IMG/VR virus record: IMGVR_UViG_2548876858_000016
Direction: 5' to 3' (one strand)
Origin: a virus
Taxonomy: Duplodnaviria > Heunggongvirae > Uroviricota > Caudoviricetes
Length of the DNA: 19,882 nucleotides
A model generated the notes under the pieces. That model was not told the origin of the DNA. It made no database searches and was given only the letters and a program-made list of their open reading frames with translations. A program made the translations under genes and the position numbers. Shown one piece after another: positions 1 through 12,480 of the stretch; position 1 is the first letter of the stretch, and each line of letters opens with the position of its first letter.

Positions 1-492
1 TGACAAACCGGTTTTTGCTTTCAGTTGGCGATATCCGGCATAGCCCTCACGAATGTTGCCCTTTTTGATTTGCTCAACTGTTTCGGCAACGTGGCTGACT
101 TTTTCTTCCACCTGAGTGATCCGTTTCTGCTGACGAACAGCTTCAAGAGCCATCGCGGCAACCATTTCGATTTCGCTCATTGGCTTACGGATCTGTTCTT
201 CCAGTTCGCGCCAGCGATCTACCAGGCGGGCTGTGAATTCGGGACAAAGCTGTGCGACGACAATGATGCTGTCGCGTTTGCCTCGTTCACCTTCGAAAAG
301 ATAATGCTTACTTTTTTGAGTTAAACCTAACCCATTGATATTTTCAGAAATCCCCATTGGGGGAAGCTGAATAATCCTTCGTTCAGCAAGGCGCTCAATG
401 GATTGTTTCACTTTGTCATGGCGGCTACCCACCAGCTCTGCGATCTCAACGCTGGTCATGGATGCTTTGCCGTTAAAAATTGCGGTGTTCAT
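1..492 (-). CDS. Phage regulatory protein Rha-family (N-terminal part; frame runs off the left window edge)
   Basis: Minus-strand frame open from ATG (490-492) to position 1; absent from the ORF track because no stop lies inside the window. My translation starts MNTAIFNGKASMTSVEIAELVGSRHDKVKQSIERL..., which matches the conserved N-terminal pattern of Rha-family regulators. GGAGA 6 nt upstream; the ATG overlaps the TGA of the upstream cro-like gene (ATGA). Confidence 0.65.
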   Translation of the reverse strand, partial: MNTAIFNGKASMTSVEIAELVGSRHDKVKQSIERLAERRIIQLPPMGISENINGLGLTQKSKHYLFEGERGKRDSIIVVAQLCPEFTARLVDRWRELEEQIRKPMSEIEMVAAMALEAVRQQKRITQVEEKVSHVAETVEQIKKGNIREGYAGYRQLKAKTGLS

Positions 493-752
493 TGTTGGTC
501 TCCTGTGGGCTTGTCATCCTCTGTGTGCGCTAAGCCTGAATGTGGAAAAAGCTCTGGTAGGTCTGGACGAAATTCATACGCTTGGATCTTTCCGTCGACA
601 GCTGCAACCAATAACGGCACAAATTCTGGTGAAATCTTGTTCTTGCAGTTCAACCAATCGCAGACTGTTGACTGGGCCTTTCCGCATCGCTTGGCTAAGG
701 CTTGCTGACTTCCAAGAATCTCAATAGCTTTCTCTATGGCTTTATGTTTCAT
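489..752 (-). CDS. Cro/YdaS-like small HTH DNA-binding regulator
   Basis: Track ORF 489..803(-); the internal Met (MKHKAIEKAIEILGSQQALAKRCGKAQSTVCDWL...) at 750-752 has an AGGAGA SD 7 nt upstream, so the shorter start is preferred. HTH-like segment; divergent from the repressor gene; translationally coupled to rha. Confidence 0.6.
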   Translation of the reverse strand: MKHKAIEKAIEILGSQQALAKRCGKAQSTVCDWLNCKNKISPEFVPLLVAAVDGKIQAYEFRPDLPELFPHSGLAHTEDDKPTGDQQ

Positions 753-774
753 AATCGCATCTCCTATTGAACGC

Positions 775-803
775 ATAATAACAACAGGAAAAGCGATATT
801 CAA
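775..803 (-). promoter_or_regulatory. Candidate early promoter for the cro-like/rha operon (minus strand TTGAAT-17-TATTAT)
   Basis: Minus-strand hexamers read from reverse complement: -35 at 798-803, -10 at 775-780, 17-bp spacer. Two related motifs TTnAACGnnTAA (767-778 and 799-810) overlap the hexamers, as operator half-sites would. Confidence 0.4.
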
Positions 804-821
804 CGTTAAACCTAGAACATT

Positions 822-837
822 TATCGGAAAGCCGATA
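822..837. promoter_or_regulatory. Palindrome TATCGGaaagCCGATA in the cro/cI intergenic region; candidate operator
   Basis: Perfect 6-bp inverted arms with 4-bp spacer, ~35 bp upstream of the repressor start. ATCGG/CCGAT elements recur around the pL-like promoter (1616-1650). Confidence 0.35.
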
Positions 838-871
838 GACTAGCCAAGATAGAGAGGGGAGGAAAATCGCA

Positions 872-1564
872 ATGACATTTTCAGAACGACTTGATTTAGC
901 TATGCGCAACGCAAAATTTACGCAAGGTAGGCTGGCCAAAGAAGTGGGTATGGCTCAGTCCAGTGTCAATCAACTACTTAACAAAGCCAACGGTTCCAGA
1001 AAAACAGTCGAAATAGCAAAAGTTTTGGGCGTTAACCCGGAATGGCTCGCATCGGGTGTTGGCCCAATGGAAATCGTGACCTCTGCAGACTCACACCAAA
1101 TACGTAACATTTCTGAGGATTGGGTTACTGATTCGTATGTCGTGGATGTTTTAGACATCAGATATAGTTGCGGACCTGGTAGTTATAACTCTGATTTTCC
1201 TGACATTGTCAGATCTATAGCGATAGAACCAGGATACGCATCAAGAGTTTTTGGCGGCAGGCCAGCATCAGCAATCAAAGCAATAAACGCCCACGGCGAC
1301 AGTATGAAAGGCACAATAGACCCTGAAGACTTGGTATTTGTAGATGTATCAGTTCGCGCATTTAATGGTGATGGTATATACGCCTTTACATACTCTGGAA
1401 CATCGCACATCAAAAGACTTCAAAAAATCAAAGATACTCTAACGGTGATATCTGACAACCCAGCTTACAAGGATTGGGCTATCGAACCGGAAGACTTTGA
1501 ACAACTTCACATTGACGGAAAAGTAATTGTCAGTTGGCCTATGACACTACACCGTTTTGCATAA
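872..1564 (+). CDS. CI-like phage repressor (N-terminal HTH_XRE domain + C-terminal S24 LexA-like autopeptidase domain)
   Basis: 230-aa ORF. N-terminal HTH (QGRLAKEVGMAQSSVNQLL), C-terminal GDSM serine motif and downstream Lys (HIKRLQK) typical of S24 peptidases. GGAGG SD ~9 nt upstream; divergent from cro-like gene. Confidence 0.85.
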   Translation: MTFSERLDLAMRNAKFTQGRLAKEVGMAQSSVNQLLNKANGSRKTVEIAKVLGVNPEWLASGVGPMEIVTSADSHQIRNISEDWVTDSYVVDVLDIRYSCGPGSYNSDFPDIVRSIAIEPGYASRVFGGRPASAIKAINAHGDSMKGTIDPEDLVFVDVSVRAFNGDGIYAFTYSGTSHIKRLQKIKDTLTVISDNPAYKDWAIEPEDFEQLHIDGKVIVSWPMTLHRFA

Positions 1565-1582
1565 GCAAAAATCATTTAACCC

Positions 1583-1608
1583 GCCCACTCTTAAGTGGGC
1601 TTTTTTTT
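1583..1608 (+). terminator. Rho-independent terminator after the repressor gene
   Basis: GCCCACTC / GTGGGC stem with short loop followed by T8 run (1601-1608). Confidence 0.55.
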
Positions 1609-1629
1609 GGAAAGAAATCGATAAACCGA

Positions 1630-1658
1630 TTGACAGGAAAAATCGGCAAACCTATTAT
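1630..1658 (+). promoter_or_regulatory. Near-consensus sigma70 promoter (TTGACA-17-TATTAT), pL-like
   Basis: TTGACA at 1630-1635, 17-bp spacer, TATTAT at 1653-1658; flanked by CCGAT/ATCGG dyad elements; drives the downstream plus-strand operon. Confidence 0.55.
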
Positions 1659-1707
1659 CATGGCATAGGTATCGAACTCACCAAAACAATTATAGAGGAT
1701 GAGAAAA

Positions 1708-3938: not shown

Positions 3939-4123
3939 ATATTTATTTCAGAATAGTCATATCACTGGCAATTATCTCATGCATTTACGGATTACTCGTC
4001 CCGTTTCTGATATCAATGAAGGATACGGTAGCGGTAATTTCTGGCTTTGCACTGGCGTTTCTGACCCCGCCATGCATTTATGCCATTTATAAGGGGCTTT
4101 CTTTCACTAAGGATAAAAGATGA
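3935..4123 (+). CDS. Small membrane protein with two hydrophobic segments (62 aa)
   Basis: Track ORF; AGGAGG SD; segments IVISLAIISCIYGLLVPFLI and VAVISGFALAFLTPPCIYAI. Coupled on both sides by ATGA overlaps. Confidence 0.55.
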   Translation: MNIYFRIVISLAIISCIYGLLVPFLISMKDTVAVISGFALAFLTPPCIYAIYKGLSFTKDKR

Positions 4124-4947
4124 AAAAAATTATTTTTTCTTTAGCCATTGTTCTGCCTGCCATTGGCCTTGTCGGTTGTGATCGTGTTGAGCCTGGTAAT
4201 GTGGGCATCAAAGTCAACAAACTTGGCGACGACAAAGGCGTCGGTGAAGTGGTCGGTGTTGGTCGCTACTGGACAGGCTGGAACACTGAAGTTTATATCT
4301 TCCCGACCTTTAAGCAGATGAAGACCTACGATGATCCATTCAGTTTCCAGATGAGCGATGGAACAACCATTGGTTACCACATCGGAGTAGCCTACAAGGT
4401 TGATCCATCCAAAGTTACCACGGTGTTTCAAACCTACCGCAAAGGTGTGGATGACATTACCGACACCGACCTGCGCCAGAAGATAGCAGATGCACTAAAT
4501 CGGCTGGCCAGCAAAATGACCACTGATAAATTTATCGACGGTGGCAAATCTGAACTACTGGATGCAGCTCTAAAAGATATTCAGGCAGAAATGACGCCCA
4601 TCGGTATTCAGGTAATGAGCCTGTCTTATGTAGGTAAACCGGAGTACCCGCCAACCGTTATCGACAGCATTAACGCCAAAGTCACGGCAAACCAGAAAAC
4701 CCTGCAACGCGAGCAGGAAGTAAAACAGCGCGAAGCGGAAGCCAACATGTTGCGTGCGGAGGCTGCCGGACAGGCAGATGCAATTCGCACAAAAGCCCAG
4801 GCCGAAGCCGATGCTATTCGTTTACGCGGTGAAGCTCTGCGCCAGAACCCCGGAGTTATGGAGCTGGAAGCCATCAATAAATGGAACGGCACACTGCCGC
4901 AATACATGACCAGCGGAGCCAATACACCCTTTATCCAGGTTAAATAA
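4120..4947 (+). CDS. SPFH/band-7 (stomatin/HflK-C-like) domain lipoprotein
   Basis: 275-aa ORF; N-terminal signal peptide with lipobox LVGC (MKKIIFSLAIVLPAIGLVGC); central region resembles the SPFH fold; A/E/Q-rich coiled-coil tail (QREAEANMLRAEAAGQADAIRTKAQAEADAIRLRGEA); AAGGA SD 6 nt upstream. Confidence 0.75.
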   Translation: MKKIIFSLAIVLPAIGLVGCDRVEPGNVGIKVNKLGDDKGVGEVVGVGRYWTGWNTEVYIFPTFKQMKTYDDPFSFQMSDGTTIGYHIGVAYKVDPSKVTTVFQTYRKGVDDITDTDLRQKIADALNRLASKMTTDKFIDGGKSELLDAALKDIQAEMTPIGIQVMSLSYVGKPEYPPTVIDSINAKVTANQKTLQREQEVKQREAEANMLRAEAAGQADAIRTKAQAEADAIRLRGEALRQNPGVMELEAINKWNGTLPQYMTSGANTPFIQVK

Positions 4948-6071: not shown

Positions 6072-7385
6072 ATGGATAAAGTCAAATATCCAACAGGCGT
6101 CGAAAACCACGGTGGCACATTACGCATCTGGTTTAATTTTAAAGGTAAACGTGTCAGGGAAAATCTTGGTGTCCCTGACACTGCCAAGAACAGGAAGATC
6201 GCCGGAGAGCTGCGGACATCTGTATGTTTTGCTATTCGTACAGGAAACTTTGATTACGCTGCGCAGTTCCCTGACTCTCCTAACCTCAAGGCTTTTGGGG
6301 TAAGTAAAAAAGAAATTACGGTGAAGGAACTTGAAGAAAAGTGGCTGGATCTGAAACGAATGGAAATCTCTGCAAATGCATTCAATCGCTATGAATCCGT
6401 TGCAAGAACGATGGTTCCGAAAATTGGAGGCAGCAGACTGGTGTCATCGGTAACTAAAGAGGAATTGCTGTATATCAGGAAAGATTTGCTGACCGGATAT
6501 CAGAATTCAACGAAAAACAAAGCAGCAGCAAAAGGACGGAGCGTCGTTACTGTAAATTATTACATGACGACAATCGCTGGAATGTTTCAGTTTGCTGCAG
6601 ATCACGGTTACCTAGAAGCAAATCCTTTCCAGGGAATTAAGCCTCTTAAAAGAGCCAGGGCAGAGCCAGATCCGCTAACTCGTGACGAATTTATTCGCCT
6701 GATAGATGCTTGCCGACATCAGCAGACGAAAAACCTGTGGTCATTGGCTGTGTACACAGGAATGCGTCACGGTGAACTGGTCTCCCTGGCCTGGGAAGAT
6801 ATCGATCTGAAAGCAGGAACTATTACTATCAGGCGCAATTATACGAAACTCGGTGAGTTCGCTCTACCTAAAACTGAAGCAAGTACAAACAGGGTTGTGC
6901 ATCTTATCCAGCCCGCTATCAGTGTCCTGAAAAATCAGGCTGAAATGACAAGACTGGGTAAGCAGCACCACATCAAGGTTCAACTACGTGAATATGGGCG
7001 TTCAGTGAATCATGAATGTACTTTCGTATTTAACCCCCAGGTGGTTAGAAAAAGCAAACAGGTCGGTTTTATCTACAAGGTAGATTCTATTGGCGACTCA
7101 TGGGAAACAGCCATTAAGCGTGCGGGCATCAGGCACCGGAAAGCATACCAGTCACGACACACTTATGCGTGCTGGTCATTATCTGCCGGAGCAAACCCAA
7201 GCTTCATTGCCAGCCAGATGGGCCATGCAAGTGCCCAGATGGTGTTCAATGTATACGGAGCATGGATGACTGACAGTAATGCAGAACAGATCGCAATGCT
7301 GAATCAGAAGCTGGCAGATTATGTCCCAATGATGTCCCATGGTCACCAAAGTGACACAAGAGACTTATTAAAATCAGTGGGTTAG
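6072..7385 (+). CDS. int: Tyrosine site-specific integrase (phage integrase family)
   Basis: 437-aa ORF; GGAGGT SD; C-terminal catalytic-domain pattern (TGMRHGEL, HxxR-type segment SRHTYA, catalytic Tyr in NVYGAWM); stop lies directly at the junction with the host-gene fragment. Confidence 0.9.
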   Translation: MDKVKYPTGVENHGGTLRIWFNFKGKRVRENLGVPDTAKNRKIAGELRTSVCFAIRTGNFDYAAQFPDSPNLKAFGVSKKEITVKELEEKWLDLKRMEISANAFNRYESVARTMVPKIGGSRLVSSVTKEELLYIRKDLLTGYQNSTKNKAAAKGRSVVTVNYYMTTIAGMFQFAADHGYLEANPFQGIKPLKRARAEPDPLTRDEFIRLIDACRHQQTKNLWSLAVYTGMRHGELVSLAWEDIDLKAGTITIRRNYTKLGEFALPKTEASTNRVVHLIQPAISVLKNQAEMTRLGKQHHIKVQLREYGRSVNHECTFVFNPQVVRKSKQVGFIYKVDSIGDSWETAIKRAGIRHRKAYQSRHTYACWSLSAGANPSFIASQMGHASAQMVFNVYGAWMTDSNAEQIAMLNQKLADYVPMMSHGHQSDTRDLLKSVG

Positions 7386-7399
7386 CCTTCAATACCCGT

Positions 7400-7813
7400 C
7401 ATGTTAACTGTGTGGAGGGTAACACCACGCTTTATGCCCTGCCGAAACCCGAGGTTGTCCTGCGCTGGCGTGAGCAGACCACAGATGACTTCCGCTTCTG
7501 TTTTAAGTTTCCGGCGACTATTTCGCATCAGGCAGCATTACGGCATTGCGATGATTTAGTGACTGAATTTTTGACCCGCATGTCACCGTTGGCTCCGCGC
7601 ATTGGACAATACTGGCTGCAACTGCCTGCCACATTCGGCCCACGGGAGCTGCCTGCGCTTTGGCATTTTCTCGACTCTCTTCCCGGCGAATTTAATTATG
7701 GTGTGGAAGTCCGCCATCCACAGTTTTTCGCCAAAGGGGAAGAGGAACAAACGATTAATCGCGGTTTACATCAGCGCGGCGTTAATCGGGTGATTTTCAT
7801 CAGACACGTTTAA
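7400..7813 (+). pseudogene. yecE: Internal fragment of a DUF72-family host gene (yecE-like), disrupted on both sides
   Basis: Frame encodes ~135 aa (VEGNTTLYALPKPEVVLRWREQTTDDFRFCFKFP...GVEVRHPQFF...) with no plausible start. Assignment to DUF72/yecE is from memory of the family. The fragment sits between the integrase and the serine recombinase. Confidence 0.5.
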
Positions 7814-7914
7814 ATACACCACCTAAAGCGATACAATCTAGGGGTTGGTAGATGATTCGGATGAAGCATCCTCATAACAAGCCCAACTGCTATTAGTTTT
7901 TATGGTGGTAAAGA

Positions 7915-9438
7915 ATGAAACGTGTAATCAGCTACATCAGATTCAGTTCTGAGCGACAAGCCAAAGGCGACTCACTACGCAGACAGTCTAAGATGGTTAA
8001 TGACTGGCTTAAGGCTCATCCTGAGTACTACCTTGACCAAGATTTATCCTTCCGTGATTTGGGGGTGAGTGGGTTCACTGGTAAGCACTTGAAAGGTGGC
8101 TTAGGTGACTTTTTAACCGCTATCGAGAAAGGGCTTGTTAAAGCTGGTGATACGCTCTTGATAGAATCTCTTGACCGTCTGTCACGTCAAGATGTAGACC
8201 AAGCAAGTGAGCTACTCAGAAACATTCTTCGCTCTGGTGTAGATGTGGTCACCTTGTCCGATGGTGAACATTACACACGAGAATCTCTTAAAGACCCGTT
8301 AGCTCTGATTAAAAGCATTCTGATAATGCAGCGGTCGCATGAGGAGAGTTTGAGGAAGTCTGAGCGTATACAAGCTGCATGGAACCGTAAAAAAGAACTC
8401 ATCTCTGAAGGTATCAAGATTTCTAAACGTTGTCCTGCATGGCTTAAGCTTAATGATGACCGTAAAAGCTTCTCTGTAATCCCTGAGAAAGTGGAGACTG
8501 TGAAGAGGTGCTTTCAGCTACGGTTAGAGGGTAAGTCTATCTGGGAGATTGTCAGGACTCTTAATGATGAAGGTCACCAGACGCTTAACCAATATAAAGC
8601 GGGTTCATTTGGTCAAACCTCAGTACAAGACCTTCTGAAAAATCGCTCTGTAATTGGTTACTTCACACCTAAAGGCTGTGAAGAGATAGCTGATTATTAT
8701 CCTGCAATTATAGATGAAACAACATTCTACAAAGTCCAGCAACTATCATATGCTCGTTACGGTAGAAAACCTGCTTCAGATAAGCCAATGGCTGTGAATC
8801 TTTTCAAAGGTGTTATCCGTTGCTCTGAATGTGGTCATGCTCTGATTATCACAGGCTTTAGCGATACAAGAAACGGGATTTATCGCTGTCCCCTTCGTAA
8901 TGAAAACCGTTGTAGTGCTAAAGGGCTGTCACGTAAGCAAACCGATGGTACATTGCTTACCCTGCTATCTCGTCTTGACCGATTTGATAGCGATACGACG
9001 AATACCATCGATACACTGAAGTTACACCGTGAACACATCTCAAGCAATATTGAGAAGCTGGTACAGCTATCACTTGAAATTGAAGATTTGTCAGCTATTA
9101 CCAGCAAGCTAAAACAACTAAAGAATGAGCTATCACAGGTTGATGCGGATATCGAGAAGGAGACACAACGCCTTAAATCTATTGATGTGGGGTGTTTGTC
9201 TGATTGTGACTTGACTACAAAGGCGGGAAGGATTGAAGCACAACTGATAATCAAAAGTGCTGTTAAAGAGGTCGTTTTAAATACTGCTAAACGTCGATGT
9301 AAAGTGACTTTTCACAACGGTAAGGTAATTGACCTACCAATAACAGAAAACCCCTCAGACAACGTTACAGAGGCTATACAGTCGCTTTCTGAAGTCACTG
9401 AGAGGGGTTTAATAGATGTTGATGAGGTTATCATATAG
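7915..9438 (+). CDS. Large serine recombinase (resolvase catalytic domain + recombinase domain + zinc-ribbon)
   Basis: 507-aa ORF; N-terminal YIRFSSERQ with catalytic Ser; Cys cluster CSECGH...YRCPLRNENRC; C-terminal coiled coil. Confidence 0.85.
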   Translation: MKRVISYIRFSSERQAKGDSLRRQSKMVNDWLKAHPEYYLDQDLSFRDLGVSGFTGKHLKGGLGDFLTAIEKGLVKAGDTLLIESLDRLSRQDVDQASELLRNILRSGVDVVTLSDGEHYTRESLKDPLALIKSILIMQRSHEESLRKSERIQAAWNRKKELISEGIKISKRCPAWLKLNDDRKSFSVIPEKVETVKRCFQLRLEGKSIWEIVRTLNDEGHQTLNQYKAGSFGQTSVQDLLKNRSVIGYFTPKGCEEIADYYPAIIDETTFYKVQQLSYARYGRKPASDKPMAVNLFKGVIRCSECGHALIITGFSDTRNGIYRCPLRNENRCSAKGLSRKQTDGTLLTLLSRLDRFDSDTTNTIDTLKLHREHISSNIEKLVQLSLEIEDLSAITSKLKQLKNELSQVDADIEKETQRLKSIDVGCLSDCDLTTKAGRIEAQLIIKSAVKEVVLNTAKRRCKVTFHNGKVIDLPITENPSDNVTEAIQSLSEVTERGLIDVDEVII

Positions 9439-9452
9439 TTGAGATTCTATCG

Positions 9453-10226
9453 TCAGTAGCGCTTATTCGGATTCACCGAAAACTTCTTCAAAGTACTACC
9501 TGTACCAGCATTATTAAGCACCTTTGAAGCTTGCTCATTAGCGGCATCTGAGAAGGTGCTTTTTCCGTTCTTAACTCTGACATTCCTACCACAATTGATA
9601 CGGGCTTGAAGTTGCTCATTAGAAAGTTCACTCGTAGAGCGATTATATAGCTCCTGACACATCAACATACCGTTACCTAAGCTTGTCGTAGTGTTCCCTG
9701 TATTCTTTTTGCTGGTAGCACCACCATCATTTGTAGTAGCTGTCTTTCCAGTAGCAGCCGAAATATCAGTTTGACCCACAATAGCTTTAAAGTTAATTTC
9801 CTGAAAAGTTAGCTGGATTCTTAGACCATTTGAAATACCAACATCTTTAGAGGCTTTAAAGCTTGTAATAATGGAGTCATCAATTTTAATACCATCTTTA
9901 CAGATGACCGAAATAATCTGCTTCTGGTCACGCCAGTTTTCAAGAGTGTCGATGAAGTTCTCCACCAGCTTATTATCTCTTGAGATAAGGATACTACCGG
10001 ATTCACCAACCACAACCACACCACTGATTGAAATAGTTCTTGGTGAACGCATTACATTATCTGTTACAGTCTGCCCTGATTGCATATTTTGAGTGGTCAC
10101 CATCATAGGGCTGTCATATTCCATCTGTTCAGTTGCTGATAAGGTTAAGAAATTATCTGGCTGTCCTTGTAGATGGAAGTAAACACCATCTTTACCAGTG
10201 TAACGAAGCTGACTAGTGTAAATCAT
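9453..10226 (-). CDS. Hypothetical protein (257 aa); possible tail component by position downstream of the tape-measure-like gene
   Basis: Track ORF; GGAGA SD 5 nt upstream of ATG; convergent with the recombinase gene. No domain recognised. Confidence 0.55.
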
Positions 10227-10309
10227 TAAATTCTCCTTTGATTTCAGAGACTTAGTGTATTTTAATCATTTTTAACCAAGCCTTTGATATATAAGTGTTT
10301 TCTCTGTTA

Positions 10310-10376
10310 AGCGTGAGCTACGTAAAAAATAATTTTTGGTGGGTATATCTGTTCAGAAGATTTCACGTAGCACACG
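10310..10376. promoter_or_regulatory. Copy A of a duplicated intergenic regulatory element (AAGCGTG..TACGTAAA..GTGGGTAT..CAGA..TTTC..ACGTAGCACAC)
   Basis: Shares ordered conserved blocks with 12501-12594; arms CGTGAGCTACGT / ACGTAGCACACG form an 11/12 inverted repeat; lies upstream of gene 9453-10226. Confidence 0.5.
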
Positions 10377-10389
10377 GATATATAAGAAA

Positions 10390-12480
10390 TCATTCTTCCT
10401 CTGGATAGCTTGAACTTAAGAGCATATCCTGCGTGAACTGGTCATTAGCTGATTGATTGAAAGTAAAGAAAGCTGGTTCATCCGGTCTAACAATTGCTTC
10501 ACCAGTGATATTAACTGACAAGGGCTTCTTAGCTTCTACTGTTAAAGCATCAACCTTGCGTGATAGCTCACTAATAGTCATTGCAAGTTGAGCATTACTA
10601 TTAACCATGTCACCCGTAATAGCTGGTGGAGTTGATTGTGTGTTATTTACGAAGTTATTCATCGGTTCTTGGGAGTTAGCAATTTTATCAGCTGCACTAC
10701 TAAACCAACCTTTAACATCGTCCATAGTGAACACTGGTTTAAGTCCAGACTCTTTAGCTAGCTCTGGTAATTTAGCTTGTGCTTCCATTCGTTCAGGTGT
10801 AGAAGCTAATCTTTCATAACCTGCATAGATAGCACTACCAGCTAATAGCATATTCATAGGGTTTAGTCTTGATGGTTTCCCATTCTTTCTATTCACGTTA
10901 TCCGCTGTGGTATCAGCGACCTGACCTAATCTTGTGATAGCAGTCATAAGCCCGTAAATACTTCTGGTTACACCAACAACTTTATTCACAGCAATAACAC
11001 CAGCCAAGACTTTTAAACTATTAATCAAGCCAGAACCTAAAGCATCAACTACTTTCTTTTGCTCATCGGTTAAACCACGATAAGCTAATGTCACCTCATC
11101 GAAGAATGCTCTTACCCTGTAGCTGATATCAGTCAATGAATCGACACCATGCGACATATCGCTCATCAAGCTACCAAGAGATTCACCAAGACTTTTACCA
11201 CTTCCACCAAGAGCGTTTAAAAGCGTTGTTAGGCTTCTTGTGAAATCTTGAAGACCATTTTCAGAACCTCTGAAGATACTATCAAGCGTGGTATTCCAAG
11301 AGTTTTTCAAGTTCCCTAGTTGTGCCTGTGTACTTTCTGAAATGGCTTTCCAGCCACCTTTAGCGGTGATTTGTCTATTCAGTTCCTGAGTGACCTTCTG
11401 AAGAGTATCGGCAGATTTTAAAGCCCCCTTCTTCATGGCATCAAATAATTCCTGTTCACTCTTTCCGGTTGCTTTAGCGAATACCTGAACCATACCAGGA
11501 ACAGCTTCAGCCAGTTGCCCCTTAAGCTCTTCAGCCATAATCTGACCCTTACCAGCCATCTGTGATAATGCTGTCAGTGCTCGCTTAATCTCTTCTTCAC
11601 TTCTCCCCATCAGACGAGCATAGCCAATCATATTTTTAAAAAGTTCTTCAGAACCTTGAATACCCATAGACTCTTTAGCTGAAGCACCAAAACCAGCAAA
11701 CTGTGATTGCAGTTCAGCGATATCTAAACCCGTTGTTTGAGCTAATGACTTTGTGAACTCTTTTACCTGACCTGCATCTTTATCAAATACGAAATCAATT
11801 GAACGCTCAGCACTTGCACGCTGTAAACCAATTTCCATAATCTTCTGATAACTGGCTAATACAGCCTGCATTGAGATAAATGCACCTGCTGTTTTAACTG
11901 CTGCTGAAGACAGGTTATCAAGACTATTAGCTGCTCTGTCAGCATTAATGCTGGTGGATGTATGACCTCTGGCTTTAGCAATTGCTTCTCTGACTGAAGC
12001 GTTTAACTGAGCTAACTTCTCATTGAATTTTGAAGAATCCATTGACCCGGCTTTAGCAGATAGCCCGTAAAACTGAGATTTGATGTATTTCTGCAAAATA
12101 GGGTCAAAGCCTTTTAGCTTAGACATATTAGCTGAGTAAGCCGCTGTGATTGCTCTGTTGCCGCTAATTAGTGGCTGTCTTGGCTGTCTAAGTGGCTTTA
12201 AAGTATCCTCAATTTCCGTTTTAATCTTAAACGCTCTAGTGTTTTTAAGACGCTGCTCAATCTTGTCAAAGGTCTTATTAAACTTCCTTTCAAGTTGCCC
12301 TAAAGAACTTGTCAGATTGCTGTCAAGTTGCTTGGTATCGACCTTAAACGCTCTATTCAAATTGCGTTCAATTCTTTGTGCTGACTGCAAAGCTGCCTTT
12401 TCAACTCTTTGCAGTCCCTTAATAACGTTTTCATTGAAGCCTAGCTCAACGATAAAACTATCAACTGTGAATTTGCTCAT
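10390..12480 (-). CDS. Phage tail tape-measure-like protein
   Basis: 696-aa ORF; central region (GSEELFKNMIGYARLMGRSEEEIKRALTALSQMAGKGQIMAEELKGQLAEAVPGMVQVFAKATGKSEQELFDAMKKG) matches the tape-measure core pattern; coiled-coil N-terminus; GAGGTG SD. Confidence 0.7.
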   Translation of the reverse strand: MSKFTVDSFIVELGFNENVIKGLQRVEKAALQSAQRIERNLNRAFKVDTKQLDSNLTSSLGQLERKFNKTFDKIEQRLKNTRAFKIKTEIEDTLKPLRQPRQPLISGNRAITAAYSANMSKLKGFDPILQKYIKSQFYGLSAKAGSMDSSKFNEKLAQLNASVREAIAKARGHTSTSINADRAANSLDNLSSAAVKTAGAFISMQAVLASYQKIMEIGLQRASAERSIDFVFDKDAGQVKEFTKSLAQTTGLDIAELQSQFAGFGASAKESMGIQGSEELFKNMIGYARLMGRSEEEIKRALTALSQMAGKGQIMAEELKGQLAEAVPGMVQVFAKATGKSEQELFDAMKKGALKSADTLQKVTQELNRQITAKGGWKAISESTQAQLGNLKNSWNTTLDSIFRGSENGLQDFTRSLTTLLNALGGSGKSLGESLGSLMSDMSHGVDSLTDISYRVRAFFDEVTLAYRGLTDEQKKVVDALGSGLINSLKVLAGVIAVNKVVGVTRSIYGLMTAITRLGQVADTTADNVNRKNGKPSRLNPMNMLLAGSAIYAGYERLASTPERMEAQAKLPELAKESGLKPVFTMDDVKGWFSSAADKIANSQEPMNNFVNNTQSTPPAITGDMVNSNAQLAMTISELSRKVDALTVEAKKPLSVNITGEAIVRPDEPAFFTFNQSANDQFTQDMLLSSSYPEEE

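Follow-up and report, generated by a model that had tools for sequence, protein, structure and literature searches.

What marks out the operators of a prophage repressor when the DNA around its early promoters carries more than one kind of repeated motif? This question is raised by the immunity region of IMG/VR record IMGVR_UViG_2548876858_000016, a stretch of 19,882 nucleotides of tailed-phage DNA ("the window" below, meaning that whole stretch). Here a CI-like repressor gene (cI) and a cro-like gene diverge from a 119-bp intergenic region; one early promoter, pR, reads from this region into cro, and a second, pL, lies beyond the end of cI. A preliminary description had offered two motif classes as candidate operators for the CI-like protein, namely ATCG/CGAT dyads at both early promoters and TTnAACGnnTAA (TTnAACG) motifs over pR. 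Judged by its genes and sites, the region serves a lambdoid Escherichia coli (E. coli) prophage as its immunity switch, of the CI/Cro type, and comparison with related prophages indicates that the ATCG-N6-CGAT dyads, not the TTnAACG motifs, are the CI binding sites at both early promoters. A lambdoid switch in which CI would act on 14-bp ATmG-N6-CkAT dyads is the best explanation overall, and we hold it with good confidence.

One class of dyad at both early promoters

The right and left operator regions (OR, between cro and cI, and OL, at pL) share one dyad class, with a 14-bp core, ATmG-N6-CkAT, that extends to 16 bp with its flanks, wAT(C/A)GG-N4-CC(G/T)ATw. A repeat finder paired AAATCGATAAACCGATT (1615-1631) with AAATCGGCAAACCTATT (1640-1656) at 25-bp spacing, and the palindrome reported earlier at 822-837 is present. 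Taken together, the repeat pair and this palindrome set a 16-bp register for five candidate operators, which we call S1, S2 and S3 in OR and OL-a and OL-b in OL (Table 1). The preliminary description had also placed two elements around the pL -35, AATCGATAAACCGATT (1616-1631) and CCGATTGACAGGAAAAATCGG (1626-1646). Both are there, and the first is OL-a; the second, CCGAT-N11-ATCGG, does not stand as an element of its own, because on the 16-bp register it consists of the right half of OL-a and the left half of OL-b with the -35 between them. S1, S2 and OL-b had been overlooked. OL thus has two sites, with the cI terminator directly upstream, and OR has from two to four candidates, which differ in quality.

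The exact sequence ATCG-N6-CGAT occurs twice in the 19.9 kb, once in each regulatory region; with one mismatch allowed there are 7 copies against 4.7 expected, which is not significant alone. The window matches the degenerate core ATmG-N6-CkAT exactly at five places (724, 754, 823, 1617 and 1642), against 0.86 +/- 0.91 matches in simulations, a comparison that is inflated because the core was defined post hoc from the sites and that is descriptive rather than a formal test. These five matches are confined to 724-837 and 1617-1655, with four of them inside 226 bp of regulatory DNA. The same five, and no others, occur in the 42 kb of L005, a sibling prophage locus from E. coli strain 'numer 3' with 96.8-98.9% identity over the left 2.4-3.7 kb of the window.

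One exact core match lies inside cro (724-737, ATAGCTTTCTCTAT), and positions 724, 754 and 784 are phased at 30 bp. This site is probably a chance match, about 0.9 exact matches being expected per window. Its conservation is uninformative, since the Cro protein is identical in all relatives.

Candidate operator cores are conserved among homoimmune haplotypes

The preliminary description had suggested aligning the region with related immunity regions to see which dyads are conserved. Our comparison set held 8 E. coli genome loci and 22 IMG/VR loci, 30 in all, which reduce to 22 distinct OR+OL haplotypes; the CI recognition helix, GMAQSSVNQLLNKANGS, is identical in every one of them. When haplotype columns were compared by class, 4 of 40 operator core columns were variable (10%), as were 10 of 30 operator centre columns (33%), 9 of 31 promoter hexamer columns (29%) and 56 of 109 other intergenic columns (51%). 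The contrast between core and other intergenic columns gives a Fisher p of 3e-6, which overstates independence because the haplotypes share descent. The alignment favours the ATCG class: its dyads are conserved, and the TTnAACGnnTAA copy with the exact sequence is variable. The earlier proposal of the ATCG/CGAT dyads as candidate operators for both early promoters is supported, and their conservation in prophages that share the CI helix makes them the best candidates.

Most of the core changes that do occur keep to the consensus. Three of the four are within it or towards it: OL-b becomes ATAGGTAAACCTAT, S2 changes from ACAG to ATAG, and S3 from CGAT to CTAT. All 22 haplotypes keep the S3 core, if the m/k degeneracy is allowed for, and 21 keep the OL-a core. 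S1 is identical in 21 of 22, its lone change falling in the centre, and in UMNF18-type haplotypes S2 is an exact site, ATAGGTAAATCGAT. OL-b is fully symmetric in other haplotypes, as ATAGGTAAACCTAT or as ATAGGATAACCTAT. The latter is the form in locus L036, whose CI is 88% identical with the same helix and whose OR is heavily diverged. There S3 reads ATCGGAATGCCTAT, and S2 keeps its ACAG and CGAT halves with 5 of 6 centre bases changed, so that the half-sites of S2, S3 and OL-b are all kept and the centres changed.

Conservation at OL changes over short distances. Between OL-a and OL-b, positions 1636-1640 are hypervariable, and 14 variants of the 9-mer 1632-1640 occur among the 22 haplotypes; on either side lie the conserved pL -35 and the conserved OL-b core. 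A third OL site, considered at ATAGG (1665-1669), was rejected, since a partner half-site is lacking and 8 of the 22 haplotypes have lost it.

Candidate operator sequence covaries with the CI recognition helix

The recognition helix of the window's CI reads QSSVNQ (residues 29-34). Loci L003 and L004, at about 69-71% DNA identity over cro and the cI N-terminus, have QSSVNK, and the same helix is found in loci L038-L042, whose CI is 48-49% identical overall. In all of these, ATCGC-N4-GCGAT sites are found at matching positions: within the pR spacer, up against the pR -35, and within the pRM spacer just ahead of the -10 (pRM being the cI promoter). At pL, L004 has sites over the -35 and the -10 with the 25-bp spacing of the window, ATCGTTTAAGCGATTGACT among them; its cI promoter, TTGCCA-17-TACTAT, has the same geometry relative to the L004 operator. 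The S1-equivalent sites of L004 and L038 abut the cro ATG. A contig scan with CI as query returned only three enterobacterial relatives, at 43-46% identity, and one 541-bp fragment, too little for a conservation footprint. The OR of distant CI relatives (43-49% identity) was scanned for operator-like dyads with one mismatch allowed, and in that scan ATCG-N6-CGAT was absent from the OR of relatives with QPSVWK, QAAIQK, QPAIQK and QPTIWR helices. Since the sites are present in the QSSVNK relatives and absent from the OR of those with other helices, outer ATCG goes with QSSVN.

The inner base tracks residue 34, being G in 7 of 10 half-sites of the window and C in 8 of 10 in the five best sites of L004. 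In the alignment with the repressor of phage 434, its residues Q28, Q29, S30, I31, E32 and Q33 correspond to Q29, S30, S31, V32, N33 and Q34 of the window's CI, and in the 434 co-crystal structures Gln28, Gln29 and Gln33 read operator positions 1-5. By analogy, the covariation of helix and operator matches what the 434 recognition model would predict.

Points against the assignment, and other readings of the region

Several points weigh against CI acting on these dyads. The shared descent of the haplotypes, which makes them non-independent, and the post hoc definition of the core have been given above with the numbers that they affect. The S2 core (784-797) is mismatched at one base in the window; the conservation of S1 has another possible cause, since the site overlaps the cro ribosome-binding site; and locus L011 has a G-to-T change in the OL-a core. 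The pR -35, which is the OR2 position in lambda, lacks a strong dyad site. The best palindrome sits on the cI-promoter side, in an OR3-like position. In lambda the operator on that side is the one bound most weakly by CI, and with the best palindrome there the switch logic may differ from the lambda template. Finally, CI and Cro are indistinguishable as binders from sequence alone. It is mainly the OR3-like position of the best palindrome, together with the missing strong site over the pR -35, that keeps our confidence good rather than near certainty.

The OR2-like position is occupied by a conserved block between the pR -35 and the predicted pRM -35. The operator-like 16-mer within it (801-816) is possibly an OR2-like operator, with two core mismatches and lying 1 nt off the register of OL-a and its -35. 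The same block holds one of two elements that, on another reading, are the true CI/Cro operators, the ATCG dyads being incidental or the sites of another factor. The preliminary description had placed two TTnAACGnnTAA motifs on the minus-strand promoter. The promoter was borne out, and so was one motif, an exact copy at 767-778 (copy A); the other, TTCAACGTTAAA at 799-810 (copy B), has one mismatch. Both copies of this TTnAACGnnTAA/AACGTT element overlap pR elements, and copy B, a 10/12 palindrome, is identical in 21 of 22 haplotypes (799-810) and lies at the OR2-like position, where a strong ATCG site is absent. Its conservation is ambiguous, given the flanking -35 hexamers (pR found by scan, pRM by eye), and in L036 its palindrome is broken (ATCAACGGTAAA). 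Copy A has 8 variants among the 22 haplotypes despite identical CI and Cro helices, with AACG lost in nine of them, and pL, which also needs repression, has no copy. In numbers, the 12 matches with at most one mismatch compare with 6.8 +/- 2.9 and are reached in 13 of 200 shuffles, which is within the shuffle range; TATTSAACG occurs in the window only twice, both times in this region, but two or more copies also arise in 16 of 200 shuffles. We regard this reading as improbable.

The dyads may also be real operators whose main binder is not CI but Cro or the helix-turn-helix (HTH) protein encoded first in the pL operon. The conserved module 517-2074, which holds cI, also takes in cro and roughly the first 120 codons of the pL HTH gene. 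The helices of Cro are near-identical between phages of the window's type and those of the L003/L004 type, which share the outer ATCG bases, and the strongest site is on the cI-promoter side, where by textbook account lambda Cro binds first. Yet position 5 of the operator (G vs C) tracks Q34/K34 of CI, and Cro changes only from V to I; L004 has ATCG-type operators and no pL HTH gene; and, again by textbook account, all lambdoid switches characterised so far have operators common to CI and Cro. With these points taken together, a main binder other than CI is improbable.

We give hardly any credence to a register of 21-bp dyads whose half-sites face outward across the promoter hexamers, CCGATT-N9-AATCGG (1626-1646) and ACCTAT-N9-ATAGGT (1650-1670): each is a perfect 6-bp inverted repeat around a 9-bp spacer, but OR has no such dyad and its perfect palindrome is in the 14/16-bp register, the ATAGG at 1665-1669 becomes ATAAG or ATAAA in the 8 haplotypes that lose it, the L004 OR operators are spaced 19 and 27 bp apart so that the outward register is not kept there, and half-site centres some 16 bp apart would misfit a 434-type HTH dimer.

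Genes and promoters of the immunity region

The features of the region are collected in Table 1. In E. coli carriers, the module 517-2074 is kept at 97% identity with differing flanks, that is, as a mosaic unit.

Table 1. Genes, promoters and candidate operators of the immunity region (coordinates in the window)
Feature	Position	Strand	Remarks
rha, Rha-family regulator, partial (off the window's left end)	1..492	-	Pfam Phage_pRha, E 6.5e-8
cro-like gene, 87 aa, YdaS/Cro-family HTH	489..752	-	Pfam YdaS_toxin, E 9.6e-15
S1, candidate operator AATCGCATCTCCTATT	753..768		exact core; about +1 to +15 of the predicted pR transcript, and the cro Shine-Dalgarno
pR-like promoter, -35 TTGAAT (803-798), 17 nt, TG-extended -10 TATTAT (780-775)	775..803	-	scan, 9/12 matches + TG
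S2, candidate operator AACAGGAAAAGCGATA	783..798		pR spacer, OR1-like position; one core mismatch
Conserved block: copy B and, at 801-816, a weak 16-mer resembling an operator (two core mismatches)	799..816		OR2-like position
pRM-like (cI) promoter, TAGAAC (813-818), 17 nt, TAGACT (836-841)	813..841	+	predicted; by eye, below scan threshold
S3, candidate operator, perfect palindrome TATCGGAAAGCCGATA	822..837		predicted pRM spacer, OR3-like position
cI-like repressor gene, 230 aa, N-terminal HTH and C-terminal S24 autopeptidase	872..1564	+	Peptidase_S24, E 2.1e-17
Intrinsic terminator after cI, 7-bp GC-rich stem (1583-1600), then T8	1583..1608	+	terminator scan
OL-a, candidate operator AATCGATAAACCGATT	1616..1631		shares its final two bases with the start of the pL -35
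pL-like promoter, TTGACA (1630-1635), 17 nt, TATTAT (1653-1658)	1630..1658	+	scan, 11/12 matches
OL-b, candidate operator AATCGGCAAACCTATT	1641..1656		overlaps the pL -10; exact degenerate core; direct-repeat partner of OL-a
First pL gene, HTH_3 protein, 165 aa	1708..2205	+	Pfam HTH_3, E 1.1e-9

The cI reading frame opens with an ATG at 872. Over residues 4-62 its product matches the 434 repressor (2r63, 1per; phmmer E 5.2e-5), a weak match that is full-length and includes the HTH; sub-threshold Pfam matches are to HTH_19, HTH_3 and Phage_CI_repr. The S24 domain has Ser144 and Lys181 and a predicted cleavage site at Cys100-Gly101 (window 1169-1174, YSCGPG), a position at which relatives L003 and L004 have Ala-Gly (SAGPG). 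Cleavage sites of the Cys-Gly kind are also those of UmuD and the phi80 repressor. The best identity of this CI in the phage collection is 52%, its RefSeq label is generic (LexA family regulator), and the literature searches that were made brought up no experimental study of it.

The structures nearest to the cro product, whose ATG is at 752-750, are XPH1 (5w8y) and a chain deposited as 'Cro protein' (3bd1). In eight homoimmune loci that were translated, Cro residues 1-71 are near-invariant, with one substitution in one locus. The terminator stem after cI is preserved across haplotypes despite differing sequence. The first pL gene matches PHROG 4739 and 4836 (4836 being 'CII-like regulator') and, weakly, NCBIfam DicA; in phiP27 and Shiga toxin (Stx) phages its homologues co-occur with rha in the same place.

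Transcription start positions were inferred from sequence throughout. The pR -10 remains TGnTAwTAT in diverged haplotypes. The pL -35 varies at its last base only (G in 2 of 22) and the pL -10 is invariant. TAGAAC-17-TAGACT would be the sole plausible cI promoter; 13 of the 22 haplotypes have TAAACT as its -10. Some 80 bp separate the predicted starts of pR and pRM, near the lambda geometry.

rha in the early-right operon

The first gene after cro in the window is rha, not a cII-type regulator. The description of an ATGA overlap between the end of cro and the start of rha is correct: the TCAT at 489-492 is a minus-strand ATGA, with the cro stop at 491-489 and the rha ATG at 492-490. The best PHROG match of rha is phrog_63, 'anti-repressor Ant' (E 3.8e-38), and in L005 the rha reading frame is likewise annotated by RefSeq.

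The preliminary description had further held that rha replaces cII, O and P. This is right for the cII slot and wrong for O and P, because the sibling L005 has replication genes downstream, in the order rha, ash, two small genes, an O-like HTH pseudogene, a DnaC-like loader, DnaB helicase and Q. By that gene order, rha takes the cII slot and not the place of the replication genes. A cII-type regulator directly after cro is typical of lambda, though not universal.

What follows cro differs among the homoimmune loci. In L005 and L010, rha comes directly after it with the 4-nt overlap. In L001 and L011-L014, cro is followed by a small opposite-strand gene, of the bssS family or hypothetical, and then by rha (the inserted gene is at 1095-1412 in L001 and at 1112-1363 in L011). 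This small gene looks like a moron that breaks the coupling of cro and rha. L002 and L015 have a hypothetical gene and a helicase after cro. The related locus L004 has a CII-family gene there and then replication genes. The cro-rha coupling is real and recurrent; it has already been sequenced elsewhere and is not tied to the immunity type of the window. Rha in the cII slot is thus one mosaic variant of the early-right operon, outside the immunity specificity.

Comparison with characterised switches

The closest template for the operators is phage 434, whose operators are 14 bp long, with the outer 4+4 bases conserved and a centre that tunes affinity (PMC1636474). The N-terminal domain of the window's CI aligns to the 434 repressor, and the candidate operators are likewise 14 bp long, with the outer 4+4 bases conserved and the central 6 bp variable. 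The layout is also alike, with cI and cro divergent, one group of operators over pR and pRM, and another at pL. The differences are several. The half-site is ATCG (ATmG) in the window and ACAA (ACAA-N6-TTGT) in 434, and the window's CI has Ser where 434 has Gln29. OL has two sites rather than the three of 434, so that the 434 arrangement of three sites each in OR and OL is not seen. The window's Cro is of the YdaS/lambda-Cro type, not the 434-Cro type; the CI cleavage site is Cys-Gly; and no cII follows cro.

With lambda the window shares back-to-back pR and pRM promoters, operators in the pR and pRM spacers, and an S24 domain in CI with Ser and Lys. Because cI lies between OR and OL, with 794 bp from the centre of S3 to the centre of OL-a, looping between OL and OR would be geometrically possible. 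Unlike those of lambda, which are 17 bp long, the operators are of 14/16 bp; at the OR2-like position the site is weak or missing, and the best palindrome is OR3-like. The cI mRNA carries a leader with a Shine-Dalgarno, cII, N and rexAB are all absent, and no more than about 50 bp separate the cI stop from OL. Phage 933W (Stx2), another lambdoid phage of E. coli, has a repressor whose N-terminal domain is 434-like, and five operators, three in OR and two in OL (PMC3317979); its operators differ in sequence and size, being 18 bp by hydroxyl-radical footprinting.

In gene order, the nearest systems are phiP27-like phages and yecE-integrating Stx phages, in which the HTH gene, cI, cro and rha stand as in the window. 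The early-right region of phiP27 is similar to that of the window, and Stx2a phage Stx2_12E129_yecE has the same 4-nt cro/rha overlap, followed by two hypothetical genes, O and a helicase. Across the Stx/phiP27-like phages, rha and the junction have 79-89% DNA identity to the window; the cI and cro alleles differ, and the immunity specificity therefore differs. Rha in the slot after cro has been described for the Eru6, Eru7 and Eru9 Stx phages (bioRxiv 10.1101/2021.11.24.469858). No stx gene is visible in the window. The sibling L005 has, instead, genes for the A and B chains of heat-labile enterotoxin type II (LT-II) at 7487-8632, between Q and the lysis genes.

Other features of the window

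Downstream in the pL operon, and upstream of the integrase gene, 4120-4947 encodes an SPFH/Band 7 protein (Pfam E 1.1e-30). A tyrosine integrase gene (6072-7385) is followed by a DUF72 gene fragment (7412-7813), possibly yecE-like, and the pair suggests the end of the prophage. Beyond it, a second element has a large serine recombinase gene (7915-9438), with Dit-like and tape-measure tail genes on the other strand, and 6072-12480 looks like tandem prophages. An Rfam scan of the whole window gave no match, nor did a tRNA scan of the window.

A working model and its meaning

In the model that we favour, CI dimers would bind the 14-bp dyad operators, with Cro probably on the same sites; the identity of the binder, the promoter starts, the relative affinities and the direction of regulation in this model are inferred. 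The outer 4+4 bases of each operator would be read directly and the central 6 bp left free to vary, as in 434. CI on OL-a and OL-b, 25 bp apart at the pL -35 and -10, would occlude pL and shut off leftward early transcription. On S2, and probably also on S1, it would block the cro-rha operon at pR, in which rha is translationally coupled to cro. S3 would repress the predicted cI promoter, either as negative autoregulation by high CI or as shut-off by Cro. RecA-stimulated self-cleavage of CI at Cys100-Gly101 would then lift repression and lead to induction.

A more unusual wiring can also be imagined, in which three differences hold jointly: the best operator acts on the cI promoter with weak pR and leader sites, Rha stands in for cII, and the pL HTH protein is a component of specificity. 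In such a switch the Ant-like Rha, coupled to Cro, could take over the lysis-lysogeny decision. We think this combination unlikely. If all three differences were true, it would be a three-regulator switch of a kind uncharacterised so far.

Otherwise, with CI on the ATCG dyads of a lambdoid switch, the region is a routine example of lambdoid mosaicism: the architecture, the protein families and the operator design are all of known kinds, and it is the allele that is new. What it adds is a concrete operator model (sequence, register and five positions) for an immunity type found at 30 loci in E. coli genomes and viral contigs. The strength of the repressor-operator interaction sets the inducibility of a prophage and hence the level of toxin expression, and relatives of the same architecture carry Shiga toxin genes, as one sibling prophage carries those of LT-II.

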